Source of the DNA: Candidatus Nomurabacteria bacterium
GTDB lineage: Bacteria; Patescibacteriota; Patescibacteriia; UBA1558; GWA2-36-10
NCBI GenBank assembly: GCA_020632415.1
Contig: JACKFO010000002.1
Location: 23,244 to 87,243 of the forward strand
Direction of reading: 5' to 3'
DNA: 64,000 nt
Shown: in pieces, positions 149 to 39,412 of the stretch
How positions within the stretch are numbered: position 1 is the stretch's first letter
Layout: every line of letters starts with the position of its first letter
Notes under the pieces: model-generated
The model's input: only the letters and a program-made list of their open reading frames with translations
What the model was told of the DNA's origin: nothing
Databases searched by the model: none
Made by a program: the position numbers and the translations under genes

Positions 149-778
149 TTATTTTTTTAGCCAGCGGACTCCTAGATAAACAAAGGGTGTATCGATGACA
201 GCCAGGATTAATTTTAGAGCATAATAAGGTAAAATCAAGTGCCACATAAAGGCAAAGTCAAATTTTGGTGCAATTTGGTAGAACGCTAAGAAGATAAAAA
301 TGCTTGTGTCGATAAACTGACTAACTGCAGTGGATAGATTATTACGCAGCCATAAAAATCGTCCCTTGGTTTTTTCCTTCCAAAAATTAAAAGACCAGAC
401 ATCATGCATTTGGCTAATCAAAAAAGCAACGATGGAAGCCAAAAAGAAACGTGCAGAGTTTTGAAAGATTGTTACAAAAGCTTCGTTATTTGTATATCGT
501 TCAGCAGGATTAAGCCAAACTGTCCATTGAATGAAAAGAAAGCTTAAAAATAAAATAATTGCCGTAGTCCAGATTAAGCTGTTGACTATTTTTTTGCCTT
601 TTACCTCTTCTAAAATATCAGTGATCAAGAAAGTGATTGGCATTAGCCAGATGGTGACGGAAATAGTCAGTGAACCTAAATTATAAACTTTGGCGCCGAC
701 AATATTAGCGAGCATCAAGGAGCTGATAAATAAAGCTTGTAAAAATAAAATTTTATTATCTTGAGTTATTTTAATCAT
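149..778 (-). CDS. yhhQ: YhhQ-family (DUF165/VUT) queuosine-precursor transporter, polytopic membrane protein
   Basis: Blocks co-linear with E. coli YhhQ (e.g. ...QMHDVWSFNFW...NNLSTAVSQFIDTSIFIFLAF...). ATG at 776-778; 4-nt overlap with dprA stop. Confidence 0.75.
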   Translation of the reverse strand: MIKITQDNKILFLQALFISSLMLANIVGAKVYNLGSLTISVTIWLMPITFLITDILEEVKGKKIVNSLIWTTAIILFLSFLFIQWTVWLNPAERYTNNEAFVTIFQNSARFFLASIVAFLISQMHDVWSFNFWKEKTKGRFLWLRNNLSTAVSQFIDTSIFIFLAFYQIAPKFDFAFMWHLILPYYALKLILAVIDTPFVYLGVRWLKK

Positions 779-1845
779 TTGATTTCAAATTCGTTAAATT
801 GATTAAGACTAATTAAGTTCATGATTTCCAGCTGACTCAAAGCTTTATTTAAATCAGAAGTTTTGATGGCTAATTTATTTTGTAATAAATCAAAACTTAA
901 GCTTTCGCTGGCTAGTGTTCCATAAACTTTTTTCTGCTCATTATTTAAATCGAGCATTTTTTTGTCAGTCTTTTTGATCAAATCATATGTTTGTAAAATG
1001 TCACTACTATTTAATAAAATATTTGCTCCTTGATAGATTAGTTGATTTGGTCCTTCGCAGAGTTTGAGATTGATATTGCCTGGTAAGGCAAAAACTTCTC
1101 TTCCATTTTCCAAGGCGCATTGAGCGGTAATTAAAGTGCCAGATTTTTCTGCGCCAGAGACAACGATGCTCGCTGGGCTTAAGCCGGCTAAAATCCGATT
1201 ACGCTTAGGAAATTGATAAAGCGCTGGTTTAGTCAAAGGCGGATATTCAGATAAAATTAAGCCGTCATTTTTTAAAATATCTTGAGCCAGTTTTAGATTT
1301 TGGCGGGGATACAAGACTTTTTGATCAAAGCCTGAGCCCAGGACGGCAATTGTTTTTAGATTGTTTTTCAAAGCGGCCAGATGCGCTGCTGAGTCGATTC
1401 CTAGGGCTAATCCGCTGACAATCACCAGTGGAGTTTGCGCTAAATCAGTAAGTAAAGAATTTAAAGTATTTAAATGGTAAGAAGTCAAAGTTCGCGAACC
1501 AACGATGCTTAATAAATATTTACTCTCTAACAATTTTAAATTACCTTGGTAAAATAAAAAGAGCGGTGGATCAAAAATTGTTTTTAACAACTCTGGGTAA
1601 GCAGGATCTAAAATGCTTAAGGAGTTTTTGTAAACTAGAAAATCTTGGCGGATTTTTGCAACAAAATTTGTATTTAGTTTACTAGCATTGACTAATTTAG
1701 CAATCGCTTTTGGCGGGGAAGCATAAAGTGTCTTGGGCAAAAATCCGTCTTTTAGATATTCCCAAATTAAGCTCTCCTTTAAACCATGGATTGATTTTAA
1801 ATAAAATAAATAATACTCTTCATTTTTTAAATCGCTTTTCATCAT
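775..1845 (-). CDS. dprA: DNA processing protein DprA (Smf)
   Basis: Rossmann-like DprA core (SGLALGIDSAAH...LGSGFD...RNRILAGLS...VVSGAEKSGTLITA); 356 aa. Confidence 0.85.
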   Translation of the reverse strand: MMKSDLKNEEYYLFYLKSIHGLKESLIWEYLKDGFLPKTLYASPPKAIAKLVNASKLNTNFVAKIRQDFLVYKNSLSILDPAYPELLKTIFDPPLFLFYQGNLKLLESKYLLSIVGSRTLTSYHLNTLNSLLTDLAQTPLVIVSGLALGIDSAAHLAALKNNLKTIAVLGSGFDQKVLYPRQNLKLAQDILKNDGLILSEYPPLTKPALYQFPKRNRILAGLSPASIVVSGAEKSGTLITAQCALENGREVFALPGNINLKLCEGPNQLIYQGANILLNSSDILQTYDLIKKTDKKMLDLNNEQKKVYGTLASESLSFDLLQNKLAIKTSDLNKALSQLEIMNLISLNQFNEFEIK

Positions 1846-6104: not shown

Positions 6105-6833
6105 ATGATTTTTAAAACAGAAGCTTTTGTTTTGCGCGCCATTCCTTGGCGAGAAGCTGATCGTCTTTATTATTTTTTTACTCCACACGAAGGAGTAATT
6201 ACCGGAGTAGTCAGGGCAGCTGCTAAATCTAGCAGTAAGTTAGCTGGACAGCTTTTGCCTTTTGCTAAAGTACAAATTATGATTGGCCGAGGAAAACTAG
6301 ATCATGTTGCGGGCACTAGTACGATTAAGGATTACCAAAATTTAAGAACGGATTTAAAAAATTTGTCATTAGCCGCTTCAATCGTGGAGTTATTTTTGGG
6401 AGAATTATCCAGCGGCGCCAAACAACAAGAGTTTGATTTATTAGAGGAAGTTTTTACTTTATTAAATGAAGAAAATTTAAAATCAGAGGATAAATTGATT
6501 TTGGTCAGAACTTTTTTGTGGAAATTTTTATCCCTAAGTGGTTGGCAGCCACAGTTAGATGCTTGTTTTGTCTGTCAGAAAAGTATTTCGCAAGGAGCGT
6601 ATTTGCCAGGACGTGGTTTAGTTTGTCATCAGCACAATTTGGCTGGGGCTTTGTTAATTAGTCCAGATTTGCTACAATTTTTAAGAGAGATCTTAAAAAC
6701 ATCATTAAAAGATAGTTTGGATTTAAAATTAAATCCAGAATTAAATAAAGAATGGTTGCAGGCTTCTCAGGCTTATTATCAAGAAGTCTATGATCGACCA
6801 TCAAGAGCATTAAAATTATTTGTTTATGGCTAA
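6105..6833 (+). CDS. recO: DNA repair protein RecO
   Basis: N-terminal OB fold plus C-terminal Cys4 zinc finger (CFVCQ...CHQH); ATG immediately after the ileS stop. Confidence 0.8.
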   Translation: MIFKTEAFVLRAIPWREADRLYYFFTPHEGVITGVVRAAAKSSSKLAGQLLPFAKVQIMIGRGKLDHVAGTSTIKDYQNLRTDLKNLSLAASIVELFLGELSSGAKQQEFDLLEEVFTLLNEENLKSEDKLILVRTFLWKFLSLSGWQPQLDACFVCQKSISQGAYLPGRGLVCHQHNLAGALLISPDLLQFLREILKTSLKDSLDLKLNPELNKEWLQASQAYYQEVYDRPSRALKLFVYG

Positions 6834-9771: not shown

Positions 9772-9835
9772 ATCCGCCTCGCCGGCGGGGCTGTTTTTTA
9801 CAAATTTATTTTGTACTGATCATTCAAAAAGTTAA

Positions 9836-9866
9836 AAGCGCTCCGTAGCTCCGGAGCGCTTTTGAG
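9836..9866. terminator. bidirectional hairpin terminator
   Basis: aaagcgctccg-tagc-tccggagcgcttt; A/T runs on both sides. Confidence 0.5.
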
Positions 9867-9880
9867 GGAGAAGCGCTTGG

Positions 9881-10039
9881 TCACTTGCTAGCTTTCTTGG
9901 TAGCAGTCTCTGCGCGAAGCTTCTCAAGTGCGGGCATGATGTACAAAATCATTTCTTCATCGGCTGGTGATACTCGTCTGTTGTTGAATGCATCGACGAC
10001 GATGGTTTCGCCGTTTCTTTCGACAATCTTGCAGCACAT
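9881..10039 (-). CDS. candidate small protein (52 aa), absent from the >=60-aa ORF track
   Basis: ATG preceded by GGAGAAAT SD at ideal spacing; relatively GC-rich; ends just before the bidirectional terminator. Translation: MCCKIVERNGETIVVDAFNNRRVSPADEEMILYIMPALEKLRAETATKKASK. Confidence 0.35.
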   Translation of the reverse strand: MCCKIVERNGETIVVDAFNNRRVSPADEEMILYIMPALEKLRAETATKKASK

Positions 10040-10133: not shown

Positions 10134-10505
10134 ATGACAGGAAATATTTTTCTACAAACAATCAAAACTCTCTTCCTAGATTTTCTAGGGGAGATTTTGT
10201 ATTTTCCTTTTTGGTGGTACGGTAGTGGTTTGAAAAAAATTGTTTTATATATCTGGCAAAGTACCAGAAGATTAGCTGGAAATTTGTCTTTGCGCATTAT
10301 GCTCAAAAATCTTTTCCGCCCAATGTACGGTCAGTATGATCGAGCTGGTCGGGCAATTAGTTTTTTTATGCGCATCATTTTATTGTTTAGTCGTTTAGTT
10401 GTTTTTATTGTGCTGAGCATAATGTATCTTTGTATTTTATTAGTCTGGATGATTTTGCCGATTTTGATTCTTTGGCAGTTGCTTAGAAATTTGCATATTT
10501 TATGA
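10134..10505 (+). CDS. hypothetical polytopic membrane protein
   Basis: ATG 7 nt downstream of a perfect TATAAT (10121-10126); 3-4 hydrophobic helices; end overlaps the ClpC-like start. Confidence 0.5.
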   Translation: MTGNIFLQTIKTLFLDFLGEILYFPFWWYGSGLKKIVLYIWQSTRRLAGNLSLRIMLKNLFRPMYGQYDRAGRAISFFMRIILLFSRLVVFIVLSIMYLCILLVWMILPILILWQLLRNLHIL

Positions 10506-13207
10506 AGGCTATCAGATTCAAACAATGTGATCAGTGCCAAGACAAGAGCAAATCCTGTAATGCTTGTTTTGGAATAAAAAACTTTTATTTTTCTAATAAC
10601 AATTTTTTTTATTGGGATAAAAAAATAAATCGCAGCTCAATCTTGGTCAGAGAGTTGAGATTTTTTTTGGACTTGATAATCAATGCAGCTTTGATTGCGG
10701 CGACAATTTTTAGTGTAGTTTTAATTTATCGGATTTTAAATAGCGTTGAGTTTGATCCGAGGAATTTTTTGGATTTTTTGATTAGCCCTAGTCGTAATAA
10801 TTTTACCCTACTGATTTTACTTGTTTTGGACATGTATCTTTTTTATCGACTTTCTTTACCGGCTCAAAAAAGAGATTTGCAAGCCAAGCGACTTAAGGAT
10901 ACTAGTAAATTTACTCGTTATAATTTTGCTGAGAGCTTAAATCAAGAAACGGAAATGATTTTGGACCGAGCTTGGCTTTATGCTTTGCACAAAAAAGTTT
11001 GGCCAGTGACGGTTTGGCATTTACTTTTTGTTTTATTAAATGACAAAGACATTCGAGTTGTTTTAGCTCGCTTGGGAGTTGGTAGTAAAAATTTGCAAGA
11101 AATTATCGATAAGAATTTAGCTAGCTTAGTTGATAAAAATAATAATAATTCTTTAAGCAGAAAAGAAAAATTAGATTTAAGTTTTGAATTAAAAGAAGTT
11201 ATTTTAAACGCCTATTGGCATTCTAGCGTTGTTCGTAAGGATCAATATATCAAAGAGATTGATTTGCTAGCTGGTTTGGTTGCTTTGAGTCAAGATATCA
11301 AAGACTTTTTTTATGATTTTGAAATCGATGATGATAAAATAGACAATGTGATAGCTTGGATTGGTATCAATCTGCGCTTGGCAGAACGCTATCGTCGTTA
11401 TCGTGGTCGCTCGGCTTTTAAGCCAAAAACTGGCATTAATCGTGGCTACACGGCTATTGCCACGCCTCTTTTGGATAGTTTTTCAGCTGATTTAACTCAG
11501 GCCTCGCGCTTTGGTCGTTTGCCACTTTCTGTTGCTAGAGAAGCAGAAATTGCCGAAGTAATGTCAACAATGGAAAGTGATTTGGCTTCAGTAGTTTTGG
11601 TTGGGCCCAATGGAGTTGGTAAAACAAATATTATTGAAGGCATCTCTAATCGAATGATGGCCGAAGAAGTGCCAGCTATTTTTCAAGATAAAAGGTTAGT
11701 TAGTATTTCTTTGCCAATGTTAGTTTCCGGAGCATCAGAATCTGGCCGTTTGGAAGAGAGATTTTTAGGCATTTTAAACGAAGTGGCAATTTCTGGAAAT
11801 ATTATTTTAGCGATTGATAATATTCATAATTTGGTTGGCATCAGCTCAGCAGGACGAGAGGGCGTGGATTTATCAGAAGTTTTGGCTGCTGAAATTAGAA
11901 ACAAAAAAGTTTTGTTAATTGCTTCGACCAATAATCAAGATTATGTAAAATATTTAGAAGGAAGTGAACTTGGTCAAGCTTTGCGTAAAATAAATATCGA
12001 AGAGCCAAATAAAAATCAGGCAATTCAAATCATGGAAGCAAATGTCTCTTGGCTAGAAAATAAATATAAAATTTATTTTACTTACAATGCTCTTGAAAAA
12101 ATTTATCAGCTCACGGATCGTTATTTGCCTGATATGTATTTGCCAACCAAGGCTTTAAATATTATGGAAGAGATTGCCGTCAGAGTTTCTAAGTCAGGAA
12201 GACAGGATATGCTTGTTCGGGCAGAGGATGTAGCAGAATTGATTTCTCATAAAACACAAATTCCATTGACCCAAGTTTCTGATCAGGAATCTGTTAAGTT
12301 ATTAAATTTAGCAGAAGAAATGCATCAAAGAATAGTCGGGCAAGATGAGGCTGTCCAGAAGGTAGCAACTGCTTTACAGCGAGCCAGAGCAGAACTCAGG
12401 GATCAGAGTCGTCCGATTGCTAACTTTTTGTTTTTGGGACCAACTGGTGTTGGTAAAACAGAACTAGCAAAAACTGTGGCTGAGAAATATTTTGGTGCAG
12501 AGGAGAACATGATTCGTTTGGACATGTCTGAATACCAAAACAAAGATAGTTTGGATCGGCTTTTAGGCTCCAATACTCAGAGCACGCCTGGCATTTTGAC
12601 TGAGGCAGTCAGACACAAGCCTTTTGCGTTATTGTTGTTAGATGAGATTGAAAAAGCACACCCAGATATTTTAAATGTTTTTTTACAAGTCATGGAAGAT
12701 GGTCGTTTGACTGACGCTTTGGGCAGAACCGTTGATTTCACCAATGTGATTATGGTTGCTACTTCCAATGCCGGCACAGAGTATATTCAGCAACAAATTG
12801 AAGCTGGTCAAAAGATTGAAGATTTCCAAGAAGATTTAATCAAAACAAAACTACAGGGAATTTTTAGACCAGAATTTTTGAATCGTTTTGACAGTGTAGT
12901 GGTCTTTAGACCGTTAAATGAAAGTGAGATTTTACAAATCGCTGGTTTGATGCTAAATAAAGTTAAAAATAGATTAGAAGCCAAAGGCATTTATTTCGAA
13001 ATTACAGAGTCTGCACAAAAAGAATTAGCTCAACTTGGCTTTGATCCGGTATTTGGCGCTCGTTCTTTAAGAAGAGTGATTCAAGAAAAAGTAGACAATG
13101 CTCTGGCTAAGTTTTTGTTGCAAGGCAAGATTGGTCGACGAGACGTAGTGGTTTATGACCAAGGCGGAGAAATAAGTATCAAAAAAGCAGCTACTTATCA
13201 AAAATAA
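10502..13207 (+). CDS. ClpA/ClpC-like double-AAA+ ATPase with N-terminal Cys4 zinc ribbon and two predicted TM helices
   Basis: CDQCQ...CNAC ribbon; TM segments; Clp_N repeat; Walker A/B x2 (GPNGVGKT/ILAIDNIH; GPTGVGKT/LLLLDEIEKAHPD); sensor and C-terminal domain. Confidence 0.8.
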   Translation: MKAIRFKQCDQCQDKSKSCNACFGIKNFYFSNNNFFYWDKKINRSSILVRELRFFLDLIINAALIAATIFSVVLIYRILNSVEFDPRNFLDFLISPSRNNFTLLILLVLDMYLFYRLSLPAQKRDLQAKRLKDTSKFTRYNFAESLNQETEMILDRAWLYALHKKVWPVTVWHLLFVLLNDKDIRVVLARLGVGSKNLQEIIDKNLASLVDKNNNNSLSRKEKLDLSFELKEVILNAYWHSSVVRKDQYIKEIDLLAGLVALSQDIKDFFYDFEIDDDKIDNVIAWIGINLRLAERYRRYRGRSAFKPKTGINRGYTAIATPLLDSFSADLTQASRFGRLPLSVAREAEIAEVMSTMESDLASVVLVGPNGVGKTNIIEGISNRMMAEEVPAIFQDKRLVSISLPMLVSGASESGRLEERFLGILNEVAISGNIILAIDNIHNLVGISSAGREGVDLSEVLAAEIRNKKVLLIASTNNQDYVKYLEGSELGQALRKINIEEPNKNQAIQIMEANVSWLENKYKIYFTYNALEKIYQLTDRYLPDMYLPTKALNIMEEIAVRVSKSGRQDMLVRAEDVAELISHKTQIPLTQVSDQESVKLLNLAEEMHQRIVGQDEAVQKVATALQRARAELRDQSRPIANFLFLGPTGVGKTELAKTVAEKYFGAEENMIRLDMSEYQNKDSLDRLLGSNTQSTPGILTEAVRHKPFALLLLDEIEKAHPDILNVFLQVMEDGRLTDALGRTVDFTNVIMVATSNAGTEYIQQQIEAGQKIEDFQEDLIKTKLQGIFRPEFLNRFDSVVVFRPLNESEILQIAGLMLNKVKNRLEAKGIYFEITESAQKELAQLGFDPVFGARSLRRVIQEKVDNALAKFLLQGKIGRRDVVVYDQGGEISIKKAATYQK

Positions 13208-13221
13208 TCAAAAAAACTTAA

Positions 13222-13243
13222 GGAAAACCCTTAGGTTTTTTGT
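13222..13243 (+). terminator. AT-rich rho-independent terminator (ClpC-like)
   Basis: aaaccc-tta-gggttt-type hairpin plus T-run. Confidence 0.45.
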
Positions 13244-13307
13244 ATTTTTAGCAAAATTAAGTTATAATAAATTTACTATTGACAAAATTGTCATCTCGTG
13301 GTAATTT
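13238..13307 (+). promoter_or_regulatory. tandem sigma70-like promoters with operator-like dyads upstream of the high-GC island
   Basis: TTGTAT-N17-TATAAT (13238-13268) and TTGACA-N17-TAATTT (13279-13307). Palindrome TGACAAAATTGTCA overlaps the second -35; dyad CTCGTG-N8-CACGAG at 13295-13313. Confidence 0.4.
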
Positions 13308-13398
13308 CACGAGAACTTGTCAAAAGTCCGTTCTTTGACATCAGAGTTCAAAATCAAATTGAATACAACTGGGAAACCAAGAGAGGGAGAGAAATCTC

Positions 13399-14772
13399 AT
13401 GAAGAAGCTCAGTTCGCTCTGCATCGCCTTGCTGGCGATCGTTTTTGCTCTGCGTCCGGCTTCGGCCGAAACCTTCACCGTTCCGGACGATGGGACGATT
13501 CAGGATGGTGTGGATGTCACCGGCAGCGGTGATGATATCTACATCAGTCCGGGCGTGTATACCGAAACGGTGTACTTTGATGCGGACACCGTCAGCATCC
13601 ACGGCTTGGAGGCCGACCTGACCACCATCCGCAACGGCACTTTCGTCTTCAACGGCGGATCCACAATGGAAACCGTGCTTCATGATCTCGGCTTCGATGG
13701 TCCCGATGGCGCGGCGATCAGCCTTTTCAATGGCTCTGGCGTGACGGTTCAGAACGTGTTGATACGTGACAAAGAGGGAACGGCCGCGATTTTCGTGGGC
13801 AGCAATTCACATCTCGTCCTCAGCACGGTCTGGGCCTGGAACAATTCCAACGGTGCTCTGCAGGGCTATGCCACGGCCAGTAGCAATTTCGGTCAAATCG
13901 AGATCTACAACGCTCGTTTCGAAGGTAACGCCTTAAACGGTATTCCGACGATGATTCCGCAGATCGAGAATGGCCTTCTGACCTATCGACCCTACCAAAG
14001 CGATGATCGCAACCAGAACTTTGGTGGCGGCATCTACTTGCCTCTGGGCGGCGGTCGAGTCTCGATCTGGCGCAGTCTCTTGGCCAACAATGACGTGAAT
14101 TTCTTGGGCGGCGCTATCAGTGGCGGCAACGATGCCAACATTGATTCAACGATCGTCGATCTGGATCTCTGCACCATTTTCGGCAACGATGCTGGGCAGA
14201 ATGGATCGTTTTTCTATGGTCGCAATGGGAAAATTCGACTGAACATTTCCAATAGCCTGTTCGTCGACAACGGCATCAACGCCTTCGTCGGCAATGTCAG
14301 CTTCGAGGGGCACAACGTGGCCTGGCCGAACAACTACGACATTCCTGGCCTGATCGTCGAGGATCCTCTTTTCTGCGATCCGGATGGTCGCAATTTTCAG
14401 CTCGGCTACAGCTCCTTCTGCCTCCCCGAAAACAACCAGTGGGGGGAGCAGATCGGCGCCTTCGGCGCCGGTGAATGCGATGGAGTCGGTGTCGAGGCGA
14501 TCCAACAGCCGATCAACTTCGGCCTGACAGCCCATCCCAATCCTTTCAATCCCACGACCACCATCAACTTCAATCTGCAGTCGGCCAACCACGTCTCGCT
14601 GATCATCTACGACCTGGAAGGTCGGCTGGTGGCCAATCTGCTCGATGGCATGCTCGGTTCTGGACAGCACAGCGTCAACTTCGACGCCAGCAAGCTGTCC
14701 AGCGGCAGTTACTTCGTCTACATGACCACCAACGACCAGCAGCAGGTGATGAAGTTGCTGCTGCTCAAGTAG
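13399..14772 (+). CDS. secreted beta-helix-like protein with T9SS (Por) C-terminal sorting domain
   Basis: Signal peptide (LLAIVFALRPASA); Gly/Asn-rich parallel beta-helix-like repeats; C-terminus ...PNPFNPTTTINFNL...IYDLEGRLV...SGSYFVYM...KLLLLK typical of the T9SS CTD; SD GGGAGAG. Confidence 0.7.
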   Translation: MKKLSSLCIALLAIVFALRPASAETFTVPDDGTIQDGVDVTGSGDDIYISPGVYTETVYFDADTVSIHGLEADLTTIRNGTFVFNGGSTMETVLHDLGFDGPDGAAISLFNGSGVTVQNVLIRDKEGTAAIFVGSNSHLVLSTVWAWNNSNGALQGYATASSNFGQIEIYNARFEGNALNGIPTMIPQIENGLLTYRPYQSDDRNQNFGGGIYLPLGGGRVSIWRSLLANNDVNFLGGAISGGNDANIDSTIVDLDLCTIFGNDAGQNGSFFYGRNGKIRLNISNSLFVDNGINAFVGNVSFEGHNVAWPNNYDIPGLIVEDPLFCDPDGRNFQLGYSSFCLPENNQWGEQIGAFGAGECDGVGVEAIQQPINFGLTAHPNPFNPTTTINFNLQSANHVSLIIYDLEGRLVANLLDGMLGSGQHSVNFDASKLSSGSYFVYMTTNDQQQVMKLLLLK

Positions 14773-14827
14773 ATCTCAATCACCCGAAGGGCGGGTGTTG
14801 ACTTTATCTCTATGGAAAGGAGTGAGC

Positions 14828-15340
14828 ATGAGGAAACTCATTGTTCCGCTGCTGGCAGTGTTCTTGCTGCTGGCAGGCTGCGACTGCGTTCAGGCTCGCG
14901 GACCGACCACCGTCGATGAGAGTACGGGTCTGGTCTGCGACAACATGGGCAACTCCTGCGACATCATGATCAGCGGCCTCGGCTACGACGAACTCGCCTG
15001 GGAGGTCGAGTTCTCCGGCGTGGACATCAGCGACAACTCCTTCGTGGCGTCCGATTCCAGTCGGGACCTGCTGATCCTGGCGGTTGACAGCGGCGTCAAC
15101 GAAGGCTGTTTCGAGATCAGCTTCTATCCGGTGCTGATGAATTCGACGATCACCGGCGAGGCCTTCTCGAGCGACAAGATGGACACGGCGACGGCATTCC
15201 TGGCCAACATCGGCGAGGGCATCAACGGCGAAAACGGAGGCCGGCAAGTCCTCAAGTGTCTGATCGACAGCCAGTTCGTCAACGGCTACATGATCTGCCG
15301 CACCGACAACCGCGACGGGACGATCAAGTCCGCCGCCTGA
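14828..15340 (+). CDS. lipoprotein (lipobox LLAGC), unknown function
   Basis: Signal peptide plus lipobox; SD GGAAAGGAG; high GC. The track start at 14795 is a likely upstream extension. Confidence 0.55.
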   Translation: MRKLIVPLLAVFLLLAGCDCVQARGPTTVDESTGLVCDNMGNSCDIMISGLGYDELAWEVEFSGVDISDNSFVASDSSRDLLILAVDSGVNEGCFEISFYPVLMNSTITGEAFSSDKMDTATAFLANIGEGINGENGGRQVLKCLIDSQFVNGYMICRTDNRDGTIKSAA

Positions 15341-15395
15341 CCCAGGCTGTGTGCTAGAGGCGTCTAGTGCACAGCCAGAACTCTGAATTCCGCAC

Positions 15396-15436
15396 CCCCG
15401 CATCCGAGCTTGACTTGGATGCGGGGTTCTTTTTTT
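15396..15436 (+). terminator. GC-rich rho-independent terminator closing the high-GC island
   Basis: ccccgcatcc-(11-nt loop)-ggatgcgggg followed by TTCTTTTTTT; an additional hairpin at 15346-15378. Confidence 0.7.
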
Positions 15437-15528
15437 ACACCGATTATTAGCTTTGGAGTCAATATTGCTAAATATACTGATATTAGTTATAATTTTAATG
15501 ATTTTTATAGATTAAAATATTCTGTTTT

Positions 15529-16917
15529 ATGCAGCAAGAACGCAAATTTGATAAAGTAGTAAGTTTGGCAAAAACCAGAGGCTTTGTTTTTCCTTCTTCT
15601 GAAATTTATGGAGGCTTAGGTTCTATTTATGACTACGGTCCTTTGGGAGTTGAGCTAAAAAATAACATCAAAAAAGCTTGGTGGGATTTTATGAATGCTC
15701 GTCGTGATGTAGTTGGTTTGGATTCTGGAATTTTGATGCATCCAAAGATTTGGGAAGCTTCTGGACACGTTCAAGGCTTCAATGATCCTTTGGTGGATTG
15801 CAAAAAATGCAAAAGCCGTTTTCGAGCTGATCATTTGTTAGAAAATTTAGGAATTAAACCAGATTTTCGTCCGGGCGCCAAAATTGATTTGGCTGATGTA
15901 AGGTGTCCAGAATGTGGCGGAGAATTGACGGACATTCGTCAGTTTAATTTGATGTTCAAAACTTTTATTGGTCCATTAGAAGAAGAAGCAAACCAAATTT
16001 ATTTACGTCCAGAAACTGCTCAAGGAATTTATGTTAACTTTCTAAACGTTAAAGAAAGTATGCGTTTGAAAATGCCTTTTGGTATTGCTCAGATCGGCAA
16101 AGCTTTTCGTAATGAGATTACTCCGGGTAATTTTATTTTCCGTATGCGAGAATTTGAGCAAATGGAAATGCAATATTTTGTTGAAGAAAAAGAAGCTAAA
16201 AAAGTTTTTAAAAATTGGCAAGAATTACGTCGAGAATGGTACTTATCTTTGGGAATCGATCCAAAGAATTTGAAATTCAGAGAGCATGCCAAGGATGAAT
16301 TAGCGCATTATGCTCAAGCGGCAATTGACATTGAATATAATTTTGCTTTTTCAGGAGACGATAGCTTCAAAGAATTAGAAGGCGTGCATCATCGTGGTAC
16401 TTGGGATTTGAGTCAGCATCAGAAATTTTCTGGCCAGAAATTAACAGTCAAAGATGAAGAAAACAAAGACTATCTACCAACCGTGATTGAAACCTCTATT
16501 GGCGCTGATCGAGCTTTTTTAGCATTTTTGATGGACGCTTATACAGAAATTGATGGCGGTCGTAGCACAACTACCGAAAGCATCAAAGAAAAAGAAGTGG
16601 TTTTAAAACTTCATCCAAAATTAGCGCCGATTAAAATTGCTATTTTGCCACTTTCCAAAAAAGAACCACTAGCTGATAAAGCCAAAGAAGTTTATGAGTT
16701 GTTAGTAAAAAATTATCGTATTCAATACGATGAAACTGGTTCAATCGGCAAGCGTTATCGCAGGCAGGATGAAATCGGTACTCCGTATTGTGTGACTGTT
16801 GATTTTGATACTTTGGAAAATAACCAAGTGACGGTTAGAGACAGAGATACAATGCAACAGGAGCATCTTGATATTGCTGAGTTGAAAAATTATTTTCAAA
16901 AGAAGTTTGATTTTTAA
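15529..16917 (+). CDS. glyQS: glycyl-tRNA synthetase (alpha2 type)
   Basis: Class II motifs; Cys4 insertion (CKKCKSRF...CPECGG); anticodon-binding C-terminus. Confidence 0.9.
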
Positions 16918-32549: not shown

Positions 32550-35500
32550 ATGTTTAAAAATCAAGAAAAAAAGAAAAAAAAGCTTAAGGAGCCTGTTTTT
32601 TTGTTATTTAAATTAAAAAAAAGTTTGATCTTTGGTTTAATTTTAGGTTTAATTTTTCAGACCTTTAGCCTTAATGCTCCTCAAGTACAAGCTGCCACTT
32701 TATTAAGCGATGATTTTACGGGTACAACTATTGATACCGCTAAGTGGGTAGAATATGATGCGGCAGGTAGCGGTGGAGAGGCTGGTAATATTCAGCAAAA
32801 TGATTCTTTATCAGTTACTAGTAGTAATAATGGAACCACAGCTCTTGTGTCAGTGGATAGTTTTTCTGCGGATGGTTTAGAAATTTCTTCTGTGATTACT
32901 ACAAGTAATGGTAAGTTCATTTTGGGATACGGAGATCGTGAGTGGTCATTGGCAGGACATAGAGGATATTTACTTTATAATTCTGGTTCTAATATTCTGG
33001 GTTTAGCTTGGAATAATAATGTATTAAAGCAAAATGTTGCTTGTGGCACGATGACCAGTGGAGCCAACTATAAAATGAAAATTATTCCTACTGGTTTTGA
33101 GGTCTATAAAAATGATGCTTTGCAATGTACCGTTACCCCACTTACTGCTGATTTGGTAGATGGTTATTCAATATTTTTAGAATCAAATGATGCGATTTCT
33201 TATTTTGATGATCTTTTAGTCGTTGGTACTGTCAGTGAGGAAGCAACTGTGCCGGCCGCTCCTACTATTGGTACGGCTATAGCTGGTGATACAGAAGCAA
33301 GTATAAGTTTTACTCCGGGATCAAATGGTGGTTCAGCAATTACGGGTTATACTGTGACTTCAAATCCAGGAGCCATTACAGCAACAGGTTCTGCTTCGCC
33401 GATTACAGTCACTGGTCTCACTAATGATACAGAATATACTTTTACAGTGACTGCTACTAACGCCATTGGCACTTCTGATCCTTCGGCTGCTTCTAATGCT
33501 GTGACGCCACACGTAACAGATATTTTTGACGAAGCAGCTTTGTGGCTCAAAGCAGATGCAATTACTGGCTTAAATGATGGCGATGCAGTTACTACTTGGG
33601 GAGATAGCTCTGTCTATGCTTTGGACGCAACACAATCAACAGTAGATTATAAACCAACTTATAAAACAAATATCATAAATTCTCAGCCGATAGTTAGATT
33701 TGACGGTATCAATGATTTATTGCTTACTCCTTCTACAGCCGCCGCTGCTGGTATCACGGTTTTTACGGTTGTGAAAAGTACAGATACGAGTTCTGGCTAT
33801 TTTGCTGCTTTTGGTGGTAATAATAATGCAATTATTACGGGTTTTAGTAATGCTTTATGGGAATATTATAGCAGCCCGAGAACTACTTTGGGCAATATAT
33901 CTACTTCTGAATTTCAAATTATCACCTCAAGAGTGGGCTCGAGTTTGACGAATCCAATTAGTTTGGGTGCAGATGCTGGTAGAGTCGCTCCTTGGGCAGG
34001 AGATGTGGCAGAATTTCTTGTATTCAAATCAGTTTTGTCAGATACTGACTATAATACCGTGTATGATTATTTAAATAATAAATATTTTTCAGCCGTCGAT
34101 CCAGTTGAGCCAGATGCGCCAAGCGAATTAGTAGCTACGCCAGCTAGTGAACAAATGTTGCTTTCTTGGACAGCACCGGCAAGTGATGGCGGAGCAACAA
34201 TTACAGATTATGTTGTAGAATACAAATTAAGTTCTGAGCCTACTACTTGGACTACTTTTGATGATGGTGTTTCTACTGAAACTACTGCTACGGTCACGGG
34301 GCTAACTAATAATTTGAGTTATGATTTTAGAGTGTCGGCAACTAATTCAGTAGGCACAGGTGCTGTTTCAGATACAGCAACGGAAACGCCAGCGCTCAGC
34401 GTACCCTCAGCACCTATTAGTTTGTCAGCTAGTGGTGGTAATAGTGATGCTACTCTTTCTTGGACAGCTCCCGCAAGCGATGGTGGAGCAGCGATTACAG
34501 ATTATGTTGTAGAATATAAACTAAGTTCTGAGCCTACTACTTGGACTACTTTTGACGATGGTGTTTCTACTGAAACTACTGCGACGGTTACGGGGCTAAC
34601 TAATAATTTGAGTTATGATTTTAGAGTGTCGGCAACTAATTCAGTAGGCACAGGTGCTGTTTCAGATACAGCTACTGCCACAGTAGAGTATGTTTTGTTA
34701 ATAGATGATTTTACTGGCACAACTATTGATTCTAGCAAATGGCTGGAGATCGATACTGCTGGCGACGGTGGTGATACTGGCAATGTCCAACAAAATGATT
34801 CTTTGTCGGTTGCTAACAGTGAATCTGGTAGCGACGAAGGGCTTAATGCTTTAGTTTCAGTAGATAGTTTTGATGATAACGATTTAGAGATTTCTGCCAA
34901 ACTGACCGCCGGAGGCCTGACCTTATTTGGCTATGGTGATCGTCAGTGGAATTTGGCTGGCAATAAAGCATATATAATTTATTTAAGTGGCGGCACCTTA
35001 ATGGGCTTGACTTGGCATGACGCTTCTTACGCCAATTCTAATACAAGCTGCGGTACTTATTCCGCTGGGGCAACTTATAAAATGACGATTATTTCCACTG
35101 GCTTTGAAGTTTATAAAAATGATGTGTTGCAGTGCACGGTTAGTCCGGGAGACGGTAATTTGGTAAATAATAAGCCAATATTTTTAGAGTCCAATGGCGC
35201 TACTGCTAGTACTTTTGATGATGTTTATGTAACTGGTACTTATACTGAGCCGACCGCACCAGAGGCTCCGACTATTGGTACTGCTACAGCGGACAATGCG
35301 CAAGCAACTATAACGTTTACCCCTGGTTCATCAGGAGGTTCTCCGATCACCAGCTACACTGTCAGCTCAGATCCAGGTGGCATTACTGCTACTGGTAGCT
35401 CTTCGCCTATTACAGTGACTGGGCTAACTAATGACACTGAATATACTTTTACAGTAACTGCTACTAATGCTATTGGTACCTCTGATCCGTCAGCGGCCTC

Positions 35501-38500
35501 AAATGCGGTTACTCCTACTGTGCCAACCGTTCCTGATCAAGTAACTGACTTGATAGCTTATGGGTATAATCAGCAGGCCTTACTTAGTTGGACTGCTCCA
35601 GACAATGGTGGCGCACCTATTTCAGACTATATAGTAGAGTACAAACCTTCATCAGGAAGCGAGTGGGGAATTTTTGATGATGGTACATCTGCAACTCTTA
35701 AAGCGATCGTTACTGGTTTGGAAAACGATATTCAATATGATTTGAGAGTTTCAGCAGTCAATAGTGGTGGCGCTGGTCTGGCTTCTGATCTTGCCACTGC
35801 CACTCCTAGGGCTTTAACAGAATTGGTAGTTGTCATTAACGGTGAAAGTAATTCTGGTGGACAAGCTCATAATAGCGAGGCAACAGAAGAAGAGCTGTCT
35901 CCTACAGAAGAAGTGCAAATATTAAATAATACATCTTTTGTTTTTGAAGATTTAGACATTGGAACTAATAATAATATTGATCATTGTTGTTGGTTGAATT
36001 CAGCGACACAACATGGTTTAGAATTAGAATTAGCTAGTTCCACAAAGGCTAATAATTTTCCAGATAATCCTCAAATTCATTTGATCAAAACTGGCCAAGG
36101 TGGTTCACGTCTTGCTCAGTGGAATGTTGGCGGTACATATTGGACTAAATTTTTAGAAAGAGTAAATGCCGCTAAAACACAATTATCCGCCAATCCCCAA
36201 TGGATAACGTGGATTAGTATAGGTATTAATGACTATTTGGCCGGGACAACGGTTTCGACTTTTAAGACAGAGTTGATTGCTCATATTAATAAAATAAAAG
36301 ATGAATTACCCGGAACCATAGTCATCTTAACTCAATTTCAAGCAATGAGCGCTAACTCTGGGTACCCAACATATAATGTGGTCATGGACGAAATAGCGGC
36401 TTCTGAAAATAATGTTTTTGTTGTCGATTCTACAGGAGCTGCTTTAGACGATGGTAATCATTGGAGTTATTCTGGGCTAAAAGTCGTTGCCGATAGAATG
36501 GTTACGATCACAAACACCCAACTAGGCCTGATCTACCCGGGAGTACCTACTGACCTTAGTGTGAATCCTGGCGCTACTTCTGCCGATCTAACATGGACTG
36601 CTCCAATAGCAAATGGTGGAGAAACTATCACAGATTATCTTATTGAATACAAAACTTCAGCAGAAAGTTCTTGGACTACTTTTTCTGATGGCACTTCTAC
36701 TGACACCACTGCCACTGTCACTGGTTTAGAAGATAGTACAGATTATAATTTTAGGGTTTCAACAGTAAATAGTAATGGAGCAGGAAATCCTTCTTTAACA
36801 GATGCTACTACTACCGATGGCACAGCCCCAGTAAACTCTAGTGTCACTGCTACTCCGACAGATAATTCAGCTACTATCACTTGGACTACAGATGAAGCAG
36901 GATCAAGTATTGTAGATCATGGATTAAATTCTAGTTATGGATCTTCTACTTCAGAGACTGATACTTCTCCTAGAGTCACAGATCATAGTGTCACTCTTTC
37001 CAATCTTCTCTCTTGTACCACTTACCATTACAGAGTCAGATCAAAAGATCTTGCTCAAAACCAAGGTACTTCTTCAGACTCTACTTTCATGACCACAGGA
37101 TGTACTGGAGATGCAGAAGTAGAACAGACTACCAATGACTCTGTTGCCACTTCTACTGGTGCTACAATTAATTTAAATTCAGGCACAGCCAATCTTACTT
37201 TAGATATTCCAGCAGGTTTTGATGAAGATGCTGCAAGTGATGTCGAATTCCAAGTCAATCAATTAACGACTAATACTTTGCTTTTAACTACAGGTAGCCC
37301 TAGTAGCAGAAGCGTTATTGGTTCGCATACTTATGACCTTTCAGCTTTTAGTGACGCTAACACAGCCTTAACTAATTTTGATCAAGCATTAACTCTCACC
37401 TTTACTTATCTAGATAGTGAAGTAGAGGGAATGGATGAATCAAGTCTAGTCATTTACTACTGGGATGGTGATTCTTGGGAAACACTAGATAACTGTTCAG
37501 TTAACACTACAGCCAACACTGTCTCTTGCACCACTACTCACTTTACAACCTTTGCTTTATTTGGGTCAGCTGCCGCAGAAGAATCAGCTGAAGAAGATGT
37601 ATCTGCTGGAGGCGGAGGAATGGCTATAATCCCTTCTCAAGGAGAAGGACAAGCAGACATTCATATTGGCATGCACCAAACAAAGGCAGGAGTAATCTTA
37701 GATAGTCAAAGCATTAATCTTTTAATGTACATTAATTCAGAGTTAGACTTTCAATTAAAAAATACAAACTTTAACAAAAAATTAATCATCAAAGATCTAA
37801 ACATGTTAAGCTCTGAAGCAGAAATAGAGCTTGCTAACCAAATACTAAAATTAAAGCCAGGACAGTCAGCGCTACTAGATCTTAACCACAACCAAATAGA
37901 TGATCTTAAATTAACTTTTAACACTTTACTTAACAATCGTTTAGATTTAACCTTAACATTCTTAACCTCTAGTGATCTCATTAATTTTGCCAATTATAAT
38001 CTTTTAGTTAAAAGATCAGACGATCCAGCAGTTTATTTGATTGAAAGTGGTCAAAAAAGACTTATTCCAAGCGAAAGTGTTTTCTTAAGTTATGGCTTTC
38101 AATGGTCGGATATTGAAATAGATGATGATCTAGAGCAGTATCCTACAGGAGAGGTACTTACTTATCCAGAACATAACTTTCCAGACGGAACTTTAGTTAA
38201 AGAAAAAAACAAACCACAAGTCTATTTATTGGAAGATCATCAAAAAAGATATATTACTAGCGAACAAATCTTCTTAAGCCATAACTTCAAATGGTCAGAT
38301 ATTATTGAAGTAGATACTCTAAGTTCTTATCCTATTGGGCAAGACCTCAGTATTAAGCAACAAAATAATCTCAATATTACTAGAAGTTTAAACTTAGGTA
38401 TGACCGGAGAAGATGTCAGACAATTACAAACATTACTTGCTCAAGACAAAACAGTGTACCCAGAAGGCAAAATAACCGGATACTTTGGACCTCTTACCGA

Positions 38501-38609
38501 ACAAGCTATTCAAAGATTCCAGCTTAAATACCAGATAGTTAACTCAGCGCAAGAGCAGGGCTATGGAGTGTTTGGACCAAAGACTAGAGCTAAAATTAAT
38601 TCCTTATAA
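32550..38609 (+). CDS. giant (2019 aa) multidomain cell-surface protein: 2x LamG-like, several FN3 repeats, SGNH/SASA-type esterase-like domain, C-terminal PG_binding_1 domain
   Basis: N-terminal signal/anchor; two LamG-like modules (LLSDDFTGTTIDTAKW... / LLIDDFTGTTIDSSKW...); FN3 repeats (SWTAP...YDFRVSATN); SGNH blocks GESNSGG / GINDY / DDGNHW (nt ~35826-36510); C-terminal PG-binding repeat (nt ~38391-38606). Confidence 0.8.
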   Translation: MFKNQEKKKKKLKEPVFLLFKLKKSLIFGLILGLIFQTFSLNAPQVQAATLLSDDFTGTTIDTAKWVEYDAAGSGGEAGNIQQNDSLSVTSSNNGTTALVSVDSFSADGLEISSVITTSNGKFILGYGDREWSLAGHRGYLLYNSGSNILGLAWNNNVLKQNVACGTMTSGANYKMKIIPTGFEVYKNDALQCTVTPLTADLVDGYSIFLESNDAISYFDDLLVVGTVSEEATVPAAPTIGTAIAGDTEASISFTPGSNGGSAITGYTVTSNPGAITATGSASPITVTGLTNDTEYTFTVTATNAIGTSDPSAASNAVTPHVTDIFDEAALWLKADAITGLNDGDAVTTWGDSSVYALDATQSTVDYKPTYKTNIINSQPIVRFDGINDLLLTPSTAAAAGITVFTVVKSTDTSSGYFAAFGGNNNAIITGFSNALWEYYSSPRTTLGNISTSEFQIITSRVGSSLTNPISLGADAGRVAPWAGDVAEFLVFKSVLSDTDYNTVYDYLNNKYFSAVDPVEPDAPSELVATPASEQMLLSWTAPASDGGATITDYVVEYKLSSEPTTWTTFDDGVSTETTATVTGLTNNLSYDFRVSATNSVGTGAVSDTATETPALSVPSAPISLSASGGNSDATLSWTAPASDGGAAITDYVVEYKLSSEPTTWTTFDDGVSTETTATVTGLTNNLSYDFRVSATNSVGTGAVSDTATATVEYVLLIDDFTGTTIDSSKWLEIDTAGDGGDTGNVQQNDSLSVANSESGSDEGLNALVSVDSFDDNDLEISAKLTAGGLTLFGYGDRQWNLAGNKAYIIYLSGGTLMGLTWHDASYANSNTSCGTYSAGATYKMTIISTGFEVYKNDVLQCTVSPGDGNLVNNKPIFLESNGATASTFDDVYVTGTYTEPTAPEAPTIGTATADNAQATITFTPGSSGGSPITSYTVSSDPGGITATGSSSPITVTGLTNDTEYTFTVTATNAIGTSDPSAASNAVTPTVPTVPDQVTDLIAYGYNQQALLSWTAPDNGGAPISDYIVEYKPSSGSEWGIFDDGTSATLKAIVTGLENDIQYDLRVSAVNSGGAGLASDLATATPRALTELVVVINGESNSGGQAHNSEATEEELSPTEEVQILNNTSFVFEDLDIGTNNNIDHCCWLNSATQHGLELELASSTKANNFPDNPQIHLIKTGQGGSRLAQWNVGGTYWTKFLERVNAAKTQLSANPQWITWISIGINDYLAGTTVSTFKTELIAHINKIKDELPGTIVILTQFQAMSANSGYPTYNVVMDEIAASENNVFVVDSTGAALDDGNHWSYSGLKVVADRMVTITNTQLGLIYPGVPTDLSVNPGATSADLTWTAPIANGGETITDYLIEYKTSAESSWTTFSDGTSTDTTATVTGLEDSTDYNFRVSTVNSNGAGNPSLTDATTTDGTAPVNSSVTATPTDNSATITWTTDEAGSSIVDHGLNSSYGSSTSETDTSPRVTDHSVTLSNLLSCTTYHYRVRSKDLAQNQGTSSDSTFMTTGCTGDAEVEQTTNDSVATSTGATINLNSGTANLTLDIPAGFDEDAASDVEFQVNQLTTNTLLLTTGSPSSRSVIGSHTYDLSAFSDANTALTNFDQALTLTFTYLDSEVEGMDESSLVIYYWDGDSWETLDNCSVNTTANTVSCTTTHFTTFALFGSAAAEESAEEDVSAGGGGMAIIPSQGEGQADIHIGMHQTKAGVILDSQSINLLMYINSELDFQLKNTNFNKKLIIKDLNMLSSEAEIELANQILKLKPGQSALLDLNHNQIDDLKLTFNTLLNNRLDLTLTFLTSSDLINFANYNLLVKRSDDPAVYLIESGQKRLIPSESVFLSYGFQWSDIEIDDDLEQYPTGEVLTYPEHNFPDGTLVKEKNKPQVYLLEDHQKRYITSEQIFLSHNFKWSDIIEVDTLSSYPIGQDLSIKQQNNLNITRSLNLGMTGEDVRQLQTLLAQDKTVYPEGKITGYFGPLTEQAIQRFQLKYQIVNSAQEQGYGVFGPKTRAKINSL
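32697..33510 (+). repeat. LamG-like+FN3 module, copy 1 of an intragenic duplication
   Basis: Co-linear protein similarity to the copy at 34695-35535 (same LamG-like order; FN3 ending ...TEYTFTVTATNAIGTSDPSAASNAVTP in both); DNA diverged. Confidence 0.7.
34164..34690 (+). repeat. two tandem ~294-bp FN3-encoding repeats, near-identical at DNA level
   Basis: 34199-34388 vs 34493-34682 differ at only a handful of positions (mostly synonymous wobble changes). Confidence 0.8.
34695..35535 (+). repeat. LamG-like+FN3 module, copy 2
   Basis: See copy 1. Confidence 0.7.
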
Positions 38610-39345: not shown

Positions 39346-39412
39346 AGCCGGGTGGTTTTTATTTTTTCTCGAGGCTAGCCAAAAAATGCTTTTTTCTGCT
39401 AAAATAGACTAT

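Follow-up and report, generated by a model that had tools for sequence, protein, structure and literature searches.

In Enterobacteria, the O-antigen clusters sit between galF and gnd. The O-antigen genes of Salmonella have 28-37% GC in a genome of 51-52% GC, a deviation that, according to the authors, needs explanation (PMC3715488), and the S-layer cassette of Clostridioides difficile is located within a zone of high recombination (PMC7677006). In the very AT-rich genome of Borrelia burgdorferi, the vls locus reaches about 50% GC, and between its cassettes and the expression site GC dips back to the normal level (PMC3303823). Within the Candidate Phyla Radiation (CPR), a Gracilibacterium carries one locally hypervariable extracellular-protein gene with a repeat motif shared with a presumed host protein, which was read as a sign of diversification pressure (PMC6851277). 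Here, we analysed a stretch of 64,000 nucleotides from Candidatus Nomurabacteria bacterium (Patescibacteria; assembly GCA_020632415.1, contig JACKFO010000002.1, positions 23,244 to 87,243 of the forward strand), hereafter the window, in which a GC-rich segment with two genes, named A and B, lies between a clpC-like gene and glyQS (glycyl-tRNA synthetase, GlyRS). With some reserve, we consider it probable that this segment is a genuine part of the Patescibacteria chromosome and represents one allele of a clade-wide, hypervariable locus for secreted surface proteins, fixed in position and anciently acquired, whose alleles are shuffled by recombination.

Like the O-antigen and C. difficile S-layer loci, this locus occupies a fixed position between housekeeping genes, its alleles diverge far more than its flanks and, as far as few and saturated sequences show, may not follow the genome phylogeny, and its predicted products are surface proteins; as with O-antigen, moreover, all alleles share an unexplained atypical composition. 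Unlike in O-antigen, the deviation is towards GC in an AT-rich genome, and unlike in both, the unit consists of one or two small protein genes and not of a biosynthetic cluster, the GC-richness is limited to coding sequences behind host-type AT-rich promoters ("host" standing here for the Patescibacterium that carries the segment), and the organism is an uncultivated Patescibacterium with a reduced genome. With vls, it has in common that a putative surface-lipoprotein locus is GC-rich in an AT-rich reduced genome, that this feature is kept while the sequences differ, and that GC is normal in the adjacent non-coding DNA; however, no silent cassette array was found in the 64 kb, there is no GC skew or G-run asymmetry, the proteins are unrelated, and the variation is seen between lineages. 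In the Gracilibacterium case, by contrast, the variation is within a population and involves a PTD repeat array, with neither a compositional anomaly nor cassette exchange between lineages. Diversity-generating retroelements (DGRs) are common in CPR bacteria, and their variable region is C-terminal and 100-200 nt long. The likeness to them is that, in symbionts with reduced genomes, surface or ligand-binding proteins are the target of diversification, but here divergence covers the whole gene while the leader is not affected, and we found neither a template repeat in the window nor a reverse transcriptase among the ORFs (open reading frames) scanned. Finally, the segment resembles a classical recent genomic island in its sharp composition break and its accessory, putatively exported proteins, and differs from one in having no tRNA, no att repeats, and, among the 30 host ORFs scanned, no integrase, in occupying the same site across a deep clade, in having its own conserved host-type promoter, and in that no donor was found.

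Composition and edges of the GC-rich segment

The segment at positions 13,370-15,440 (2,070 nt) has 56.5% GC, compared with a mean of 35.8% in the 289 other windows of the same size (standard deviation 2.2, maximum 42.6%), which gives a z-score of 9.4; for its tetranucleotide distance, the z-score is 9.7. In windows of 300 nt, GC stays between 0.52 and 0.61 throughout 13350-15449 and between 0.29 and 0.46 to either side, so that the discontinuity is real. The GC content at third codon positions (GC3) reaches 0.72 in gene A and 0.85 in gene B, versus 0.22-0.36 in 43 of the 45 other ORFs of at least 100 aa in the window. Both exceptional ORFs have a GC3 of 0.54, one being an antisense ORF within the island and the other a 110-aa ORF on the plus strand (63321-63653), which lies in a region of about 41% GC at the end of the window and has no Pfam match. 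Leucine is encoded by CTG in 51% and by TTA in 2% of cases in the island, versus 3% and 43% in the host genes, and the other favoured codons (AAG, CAG, GGC, GCC, and CCG) follow a generic high-GC pattern. Lysine makes up 1.7-1.8% of the island proteins versus 7.4% of the host ones, and the GC skew goes from between +0.15 and +0.3 in host DNA to about 0 within the island.

A preliminary description of this DNA, based on its letters alone, had pointed to an abrupt switch in composition and codon usage and to overlapping ORFs of more than 100 aa on both strands, and both observations hold. The sense strand has hardly any TTA, CTA, or TCA codons, which makes long ORFs on both strands an expected outcome, and the antisense ones (e.g., a 438-aa ORF on the opposite strand in the related locus L081) were rejected as real genes, being a by-product of this codon rarity. 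Pfam and NCBIfam matches, as well as conservation, are confined to the plus strand of the island. The edges, however, had to be redrawn. The switch had been placed about 60 nt upstream of the ATG at 13399, whereas the GC climb begins only some 20-40 nt 5' of it; on the right, the terminator at 15396-15436 had correctly been recognized as the boundary, but GC drops back inside the terminator and not after it.

The same slot in related genomes

GC-rich genes (GC3 0.66-0.85) were found between the clpC-like gene and glyQS in seven loci, i.e., in the window and in L081, L082, L083, L164, L167, and L168, the last six coming from assemblies of different projects and sequencing runs (GCA_018062885.1, GCA_964425495.1, and Logan SRR22387790, SRR6489335, SRR19145479, and SRR30605900). 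These are seven of the ten contexts examined across a deep clade, in which the clpC-like gene is syntenic in every related locus and ClpC identity between the subclades carrying the locus is only 66-77%. The content of the gap differs from one genome to another. The window has A and B, L081 and L082 (ClpC 76% and 68% identical to the window) have A, and L083 (ClpC 67% to the window) has A preceded by a different gene, B2. In L164, whose ClpC is 96% identical to that of L083, a B2 homologue (GC3 0.83) is the only occupant; L167, with a ClpC 98% identical to that of L081, has a fifth A allele (partial, GC3 0.72), and L168 (ClpC 86-87% to both L081 and L167) has a 223-aa lipoprotein, B3, with a GC3 of 0.83. 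An empty gap was found both in the ingroup (JGI 3300072015 contig, ClpC 73% to the window, 218 nt) and in the outgroup (L169-L171, more than 24 contigs, ClpC 64% to the window, 263 nt), while in L165 (ClpC 68% to the window) the gap contains three genes that are not GC-rich. The three nearest homologues of A, which are 39-44% identical to it, all lie at this position on independent contigs, and they have 50-62% GC in genomes of about 37% GC.

The A alleles are mutually 31-46% identical at the amino acid level, even where the flanking genes are nearly the same. Between L081 and L167, ClpC is 98% identical and A 35-37%; between L082 and L083, the values are 92% for ClpC and 95% for GlyRS versus 34-35% for A; and between L083 and L164, 96% for ClpC versus 32-39% for B2. 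At the nucleotide level, L081 and L167 are 97-98% identical over the last 300 nt of clpC, the terminator, and the promoter of A, about 72% over the remaining promoter region together with the leader, 37-66% within gene A up to the end coding for the C-terminal domain, and 58-76% in the region coding for that domain. The divergence of A spans the full length of the gene, without discrete variable regions in a constant framework. At fourfold degenerate sites of conserved residues, the A alleles share 0.29-0.51 of third positions, with 0.30-0.38 expected at saturation (C occupies 40-55% of these positions in the A alleles), and for L081 and L167 the sharing is 0.47 in A versus 0.69 in ClpC. Identity among A alleles is unrelated to ClpC identity, and the distances are star-like, as seen with few taxa and saturated distances.

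The two flanks disagree as well. By ClpC, the L081 group is closer to the window (76% identity) than to the L082 group (67%), whereas by GlyRS it is closer to the L082 group (92-97%) than to the window (82%), a conflict that suggests either that recombination broke in at the variable slot or close to it, or that the two genes evolve at very different rates. Since identities in alleles and flanks do not run in parallel and whole genes are gained and lost, the comparison points to the exchange of whole transcription units via homologous recombination in the flanks. The window also encodes DprA (775-1845, minus strand; DNA_processg_A, E = 1e-71) 12 kb upstream of the locus, RecO (6105-6833, plus strand) 7 kb upstream, and a UvrD/PD-(D/E)XK helicase-nuclease (39386-42337, plus strand), a set compatible with an exchange of alleles through natural transformation and homologous recombination.

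In every unit, an AT-rich conserved promoter and an AT-rich leader precede the gene, and only the coding sequence and the terminator are GC-rich. GC3 is 0.66-0.73 in all A alleles and 0.83-0.85 in B, B2, and B3, with no intermediates. Given that the leader of gene A, which is AT-rich and A-rich, can be aligned among alleles and is homologous, the alleles diverged while joined to host-type AT-rich upstream DNA. The composition had initially been taken as that of unameliorated, very recently acquired DNA. However, because the locus is clade-wide, with one family found only here, alleles of 31-46% identity, nearly saturated fourfold sites, and a conserved promoter, the high GC appears to be a lasting property of its coding sequences and not a mark of recency; of the proposed horizontal acquisition, the foreign origin remains probable and the recency does not. 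The GC would then come either from a force restricted to coding sequences or from replenishment out of a GC-rich pool beyond our sampling, and recency would explain it only if such a pool kept resupplying alleles that already carry the promoter and leader of the clade.

One of the three genes of L165 (10229-10771) encodes a 159-aa secreted protein with a TTGACAAAA promoter, a GGGAGA Shine-Dalgarno (SD) sequence, and an MMKKLS signal peptide as in the A slot, and its GC3 is 0.53 versus about 0.43 in its neighbours. Possibly, it occupies the slot as a divergent or partly ameliorated gene. Although its C-terminus looks like the C-terminal domain of A by eye, we rejected it as a remnant consisting of that domain only, as hhalign backs the signal peptide only and there is no hit to Pfam Por_Secre_tail.

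Gene products and anatomy of the locus

The product of gene A combines a Sec signal peptide, a right-handed beta-helix, a cysteine-containing linker, and a C-terminal domain of the kind that sorts type A cargo of the type IX secretion system (T9SS); the coordinates are given in Table 1. The signal peptide, judged from its sequence (MKKLSSLCIALLAIVFALRPASA/ETF), is conserved in all five alleles, with residues 3-17 helical in the model. In the AlphaFold model of A (mean predicted local distance difference test [pLDDT] score 69.6), Foldseek placed the beta-helix, at low significance (E 4e-4 to 5e-2, template modelling scores 0.3-0.38), near PL6 alginate lyase, GH87 glucanase, RbmB lyase, and pectin methylesterases. 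Three linker columns (C326, C341, and C360) are invariant among the A alleles. The C-terminal domain matches PF18962 (E = 6e-11, 42.9 bits, cut-off 27) and TIGR04183 (41.8 bits, cut-off 23; 36.7-44.3 bits across the four full-length alleles); its model has seven strands at residues 388-455 with a pLDDT of only 65-69, and Foldseek retrieved the T9SS domains 8glk_D and 8qb1 with a probability of 1.0 but E values of 0.05-0.2.

In its signal peptide, right-handed beta-helix, and C-terminal TIGR04183/PF18962 domain, A resembles the T9SS type A cargo of the Fibrobacterota-Chlorobiota-Bacteroidota (FCB) group (Latescibacterota, Krumholzibacteriia, Zixibacteria, and Bacteroidota), but it is only 24-31% identical to such proteins, and its phylum is not known for an outer membrane or a type IX system. 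No component of the type IX machinery was found among the 30 ORFs of the window that were scanned (64 of about 842 kb). The window does encode a LytR-CpsA-Psr enzyme, and this family is generally tied to the attachment of cell-wall glycopolymers in Gram-positive, single-membrane bacteria. Given these features of the phylum and the presence of this enzyme, a cargo role of the C-terminal domain of A is doubtful here, and since no T9SS machinery was seen among the scanned ORFs and none is known in the phylum, the domain is probably an Ig-like anchoring or spacer module. As a whole, A may be a surface-exposed adhesin that binds or cleaves glycans.

Gene B encodes a 170-aa cysteine-rich lipoprotein with the lipobox LLAGC. 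It starts at the ATG at 14828, identical to the database protein P0121 (locus tag H6761_00165), and not at the GTG at 14795, as read at first. Among 5.8 billion protein clusters, no relative of B other than itself was found, nor was there a Pfam or NCBIfam match or a viral relative. Between B2 and B3 there is a weak relationship, with 28% identity over 162 aa and E = 2e-4 against a database of nine sequences. The signal peptides, lipoboxes, and conserved cysteines suggest that A and B are exported, as proposed earlier from a signal peptide and a lipobox, and B, B2, and B3 are best seen as putative accessory surface or secreted proteins.

A hidden Markov model (HMM) search with A over 1.84 billion cluster representatives (about 15 billion proteins) returned four full-length A proteins at 713-777 bits, followed by a giant multidomain protein at 368 bits, so that close relatives of A in this set come from this locus only. 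The four A proteins form a group of their own in a neighbour-joining tree, apart from the outside single-domain homologues of 24-31% identity, of which the named ones belong to Latescibacterota, Krumholzibacteriia, and Zixibacteria and are T9SS cargo. Scans of viral contigs with A, B, and B3 found nothing. With these outside sequences as the nearest ones and no relative for B, no donor lineage could be named, and the most economical history would be a single, old uptake from an FCB-group donor with subsequent residence in the clade. Two further searches were of no use for finding relatives: a scan of genome collections with GlyRS returned 80 loci from unrelated phyla at 49-57% identity, as the protein is too conserved, and in a metagenome scan with the A alignment, the back-translated patterns fell in the T9SS C-terminal domain and 79 of the 80 loci were unrelated cargo proteins. 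Exact look-ups of A and GlyRS as encoded in the window returned no record for either. The sole metagenome match covering the beta-helix, a 986-aa protein on a contig of 42% GC (L084, 28% identity to A), was not informative.

Table 1. Features of the clpC-glyQS interval and its flanks (positions in the window)
Feature	Position	Strand	Description and evidence
clpC-like AAA+ gene (901 aa), host, left anchor	10502..13207	+	Pfam AAA_2, ClpB_D2-small, AAA_lid_9; GC3 0.29
Terminator of the clpC-like gene, host flank	13211..13241	+	AT-rich stem, then T run; terminator scan; inverted repeat I1
Promoter of gene A, predicted	13279..13307	+	TTGACA (13279-13284), 17-nt spacer, TAATTT (13302-13307), preceded by TGG (extended -10)
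AT-rich leader, about 90 nt	13308..13398	+	SD GGGAGAG (13385-13391), 7 nt before ATG
Gene A	13399..14772	+	457 aa; GC 0.56, GC3 0.72
Sec signal peptide of A (residues 1-23)	13399..13467	+	MKKLSSLCIALLAIVFALRPASA, then ETF; from sequence; cleavage ASA/E
Beta-helix body of A (residues ~25-320)	13471..14358	+	Strand ladder; pLDDT 75-92 for residues 21-200; weak Pfam Beta_helix
Linker of A (residues ~323-385)	14365..14553	+	Motifs DP..CD, C.P.NN, IGA..G.C; pLDDT 26-43
C-terminal beta-sandwich of A (residues 380-455)	14536..14763	+	T9SS type A sorting domain; best-conserved part
Short GC hairpin between A and B	14781..14797	+	No proper T run; terminator scan
SD of gene B	14817..14822	+	AAGGAG; SD scan
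Gene B	14828..15340	+	170 aa; GC 0.60, GC3 0.85
Imperfect 13-bp hairpin 3' of B	15345..15376	+	Read from sequence
Intrinsic terminator closing the GC-rich unit	15396..15436	+	13-bp stem with 9 GC pairs, T run; terminator scan
Promoter of glyQS, host flank	15465..15493	+	TTGCTA, 17 nt, TATAAT; strongly conserved among relatives
glyQS (glycyl-tRNA synthetase, 462 aa), host, right anchor	15529..16917	+	GC3 0.28; no SD

The flanks of the island are intact, with a host terminator on the left and a host promoter on the right, as expected for the clean insertion between host intergenic regions that was first described. Both consensus and conservation suggest that the element at 13279-13307 acts as a sigma-70-type promoter of gene A: TTGACAAA and a TG-extended -10 are kept in all four full-length A loci, and the common form of the A-unit promoter is TTGACAAAA, about 13 nt, and the TG-extended -10, i.e., TTGACAAAA-N13-GTGATATGTTCAC. 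The B2 and B3 units have a promoter common to both and different from that of A. As no promoter-like site was found 5' of gene B, and the hairpin between the two genes has no proper T run and is a possible attenuator, A and B are probably co-transcribed. Each allele has a GC-rich terminator of its own. No tRNA was found in the 64 kb, no integrase, transposase, or recombinase among 30 host ORFs scanned with Pfam, and only chance-level matches were obtained for direct or inverted repeats that could serve as attachment sites across the island borders, in agreement with the preliminary description. An Rfam scan of the locus and of the whole window gave no match and, thus, no riboswitch or known leader element.

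An SD sequence is present before every island gene in every locus, and the contrast with the host genes is stronger than had been stated. No match of 4 nt or more at positions -21 to -4 was found for 36 of the 39 host starts on the plus strand (e.g., 15529, 16948, 18227, and 27702). Among all 41 plus-strand starts, there are five SD matches, two of which belong to genes A and B and include the strongest one (AAGGAG). Apparently, translation in this genome starts without SD pairing, and the SD sites of the island may be required for initiation on a structured GC-rich message.

In three A alleles (L081 at about 9960-9985, L167, and L082), a small leader hairpin with a GNRA-like loop is found just 5' of the SD, which, read by eye, is GCGA-GTAA-TCGC in L167 and GCGAG-GCAA-CTCGC, with an extra compensatory pair, in L082. 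It may act as an mRNA-stabilising 5' stem-loop. The leaders of the window and L083 are shorter and do not contain it. In L083, a GC-rich terminator of 36 nt (GCGCG.G.CCACCCCTGTGGCCGCGCG.TTTTCTTT) occurs twice with 92% identity, at 9822-9857 after B2 and at 11368-11403 after A, and thus, the unit of promoter, A, and terminator is bracketed by direct repeats. The islands of L164 and L168 are closed by related terminators with the loop GACCATCTGG. These terminators may be a trace of the way in which units enter or leave the locus.

Another variable region is located a few kb 5' of the slot, in the gap before the small membrane-protein gene next to clpC (L081 1-6600; L164 1-6300; L168 380-2120; L082 870-2800), and holds defence-type genes that depend on the genome. 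These are RE_Bsp6I, a DNA methylase, PDDEXK, Fic/RhuM, and Peptidase_U49 in L081, a type I restriction-modification system and a KAP NTPase in L164, HTH and SocA_Panacea in L168, and Fic in L082. In the window, L165, and L167, tgt is found directly upstream. Between tgt and the gene that comes before clpC, a small ORF on the minus strand was discarded, since it is conserved neither as protein nor as DNA. The rest of the window encodes housekeeping functions (aminoacyl-tRNA synthetases, ATP synthase, gyrB, and EngA) and a 2019-aa protein (32550-38609, plus strand) with at least six fibronectin type III (FN3) repeats and a SASA sialate-O-acetylesterase-like domain. The latter, likely another surface protein, has a GC3 of 0.25 and served as a control for codon usage.

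Competing explanations for the locus and its composition

In the scenario that we consider probable, the ancestor of the clade would have taken up an A-type gene from an FCB-group bacterium with a type IX secretion system, and from then on the clade would have passed the slot on and diversified it. Whole units, whether A-type, B2/B3-type, or none, would be swapped among lineages by homologous recombination in the conserved flanks, and this swapping would be the reason why alleles of 31-46% identity stand beside flanks of up to 98%. A, B, B2, and B3 might be used in contact with host cells or in phage evasion, under diversifying or frequency-dependent selection.

Several points weigh against this scenario. 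Even the close genome pairs differ at 31-49% of the fourfold sites of ClpC and are well diverged, so that, judged by magnitude alone, very fast divergence in place would be compatible with the data. With saturated distances and four or five taxa, the tree speaks weakly for discordance, there are only seven occupied loci, and no pair of alleles is close enough to polarise substitutions. Expression, surface location, and glycan binding are predictions. Moreover, no mechanism is known that keeps coding sequences alone GC-rich, the codon pattern (CTG, CCG, AAG, and CAG) resembles mutational GC pressure and not translational optimisation, and a GC-rich donor pool might exist beyond our sampling.

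The strongest alternative, which appears unlikely to us, is recurrent recent import, an extension of the recent acquisition first proposed. The clpC-glyQS gap might be an insertion hotspot into which lineages independently import A- and B-type genes from GC-rich donors (e.g., T9SS-bearing hosts or mobile elements), and GC would be high as the copies are young. Composition, amino acids, and codons would indeed fit a genome of about 60% GC, the GC skew lacks the strand signature of the host, and GC3 is uniform per family, with no ameliorating intermediates; however, GC-richness begins at the ribosome-binding site and not at the border of a block with foreign upstream DNA, and the A alleles group together and share an AT-rich promoter, leader, SD, and signal peptide, which a foreign donor would not supply. 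Also in its favour, close relatives differ in content (A only, B2 and A, or B2 only), and the distant relatives of A are T9SS cargo of FCB phyla. Against it, no att-like repeat or tRNA is found, nor an integrase among the 30 host ORFs scanned; 1.84 billion representatives yielded no donor, the nearest outside sequences are only 24-31% identical, and B has no relative. Assemblies of the very sequencing runs that contain these bacteria were among the collections covered, and viral contigs gave nothing.

An antigenic-variation site similar to vls, with segmental gene conversion from silent GC-rich cassettes and a GC content tied to the recombination system, seems improbable. The compositional parallel with the Borrelia cassettes, including the GC dip beside the expression site, speaks for it, as here too a hypervariable locus for putative exported proteins and lipoproteins is GC-rich in an AT-rich reduced genome. 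However, searches with blastn and tblastn found no A-like or B-like sequence in the other 62 kb of the window, and the homologue search gave no second A-like protein from the 842-kb contig. In addition, there are no G-quadruplex (G4) motifs and no GC skew on either strand, and the divergence runs over the full length of the gene and not in discrete variable regions.

We regard as very improbable that a GC-biased, targeted hypermutation (retroelement- or repair-based) acts in place and is limited to these units. It would account for the extreme divergence beside nearly identical flanks, for the star-like allele distances that are unrelated to genome relatedness, and for the absence of outside donors. 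Nevertheless, a mutator templated by the transcript would have altered the transcribed leader, which is AT-rich, A-rich, and partly conserved; A and T are both depleted at third positions; the window contains no template repeat of any island segment; and the gain or loss of entire genes, from A, B, B2, and B3 to an empty site, calls for recombination and not for point mutation. Lastly, an assembly or binning chimera of a GC-rich fragment and a Patescibacteria contig, which the preliminary description had left as an option and which the composition jump alone would suggest, can practically be dismissed, given that six other assemblies from different projects and assemblers show the same architecture with different alleles at the same junctions, that these junctions lie in conserved, functional-looking promoter and terminator sequence, and that the source contig is 842 kb long (842,326 bp; the ClpC, A, and B of the window are 100% identical to its NCBI proteins P0122, P0001, and P0121 from "Candidatus Nomurabacteria bacterium").

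Within the scenario of an old, recombining locus, the cause of the GC-richness needs to be considered separately, and four candidates fall short. GC-biased gene conversion is disfavoured, as its effect would extend to the homologous flanks, and no GC gradient is seen there. Translational selection as the sole cause does not fit the preference for G-ending codons as well (CTG, CCG, AAG, and CAG), and adenine mutagenesis of the retroelement type does not fit an A-rich transcribed leader and the depletion of T, too, at third positions. Export alone is not sufficient, since the 2019-aa FN3/SASA protein and the DUF11 and Big_5 proteins of the window keep the codon usage of the host. Tentatively, and against our own leaning, the GC-rich, SD-led coding sequences might be an actively maintained state, in which a force confined to coding sequences keeps GC3 at 0.7-0.85 versus about 0.28 through synonymous saturation, which would make the locus a parallel to Borrelia vls and a mirror image of the low-GC O-antigen loci. 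This force could be selection on mRNA stability or structure, on translation initiation and elongation, or on recombination. In a more radical form of this idea, the proteins may act via the T9SS or the surface of a GC-rich FCB-group host cell, as mimicry or hijacking of the host surface, and this may explain why the T9SS sorting domain, the SD, and a codon usage like that of the host cell are kept.

A sharp, seemingly unameliorated island without mobility genes, therefore, need not mean recent transfer or a chimera, as it was the relatives that reversed this inference, and this calls for caution in automated screens of metagenome-assembled genomes for horizontal transfer and contamination. 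GC-richness of the coding sequences alone, beside AT-rich promoters, would be a third independent case after Borrelia vls and the O-antigen loci, and a genome of less than 1 Mb offers a small system for testing explanations of atypical composition. By the common view, Patescibacteria live attached to other cells, by means of contact molecules of which little is known. A fixed slot with a fast turnover of genes for predicted secreted beta-helix proteins and lipoproteins provides candidate determinants of host recognition or phage evasion, and, being conserved as a locus and not as a sequence, it can be traced across samples via its conserved flanks.

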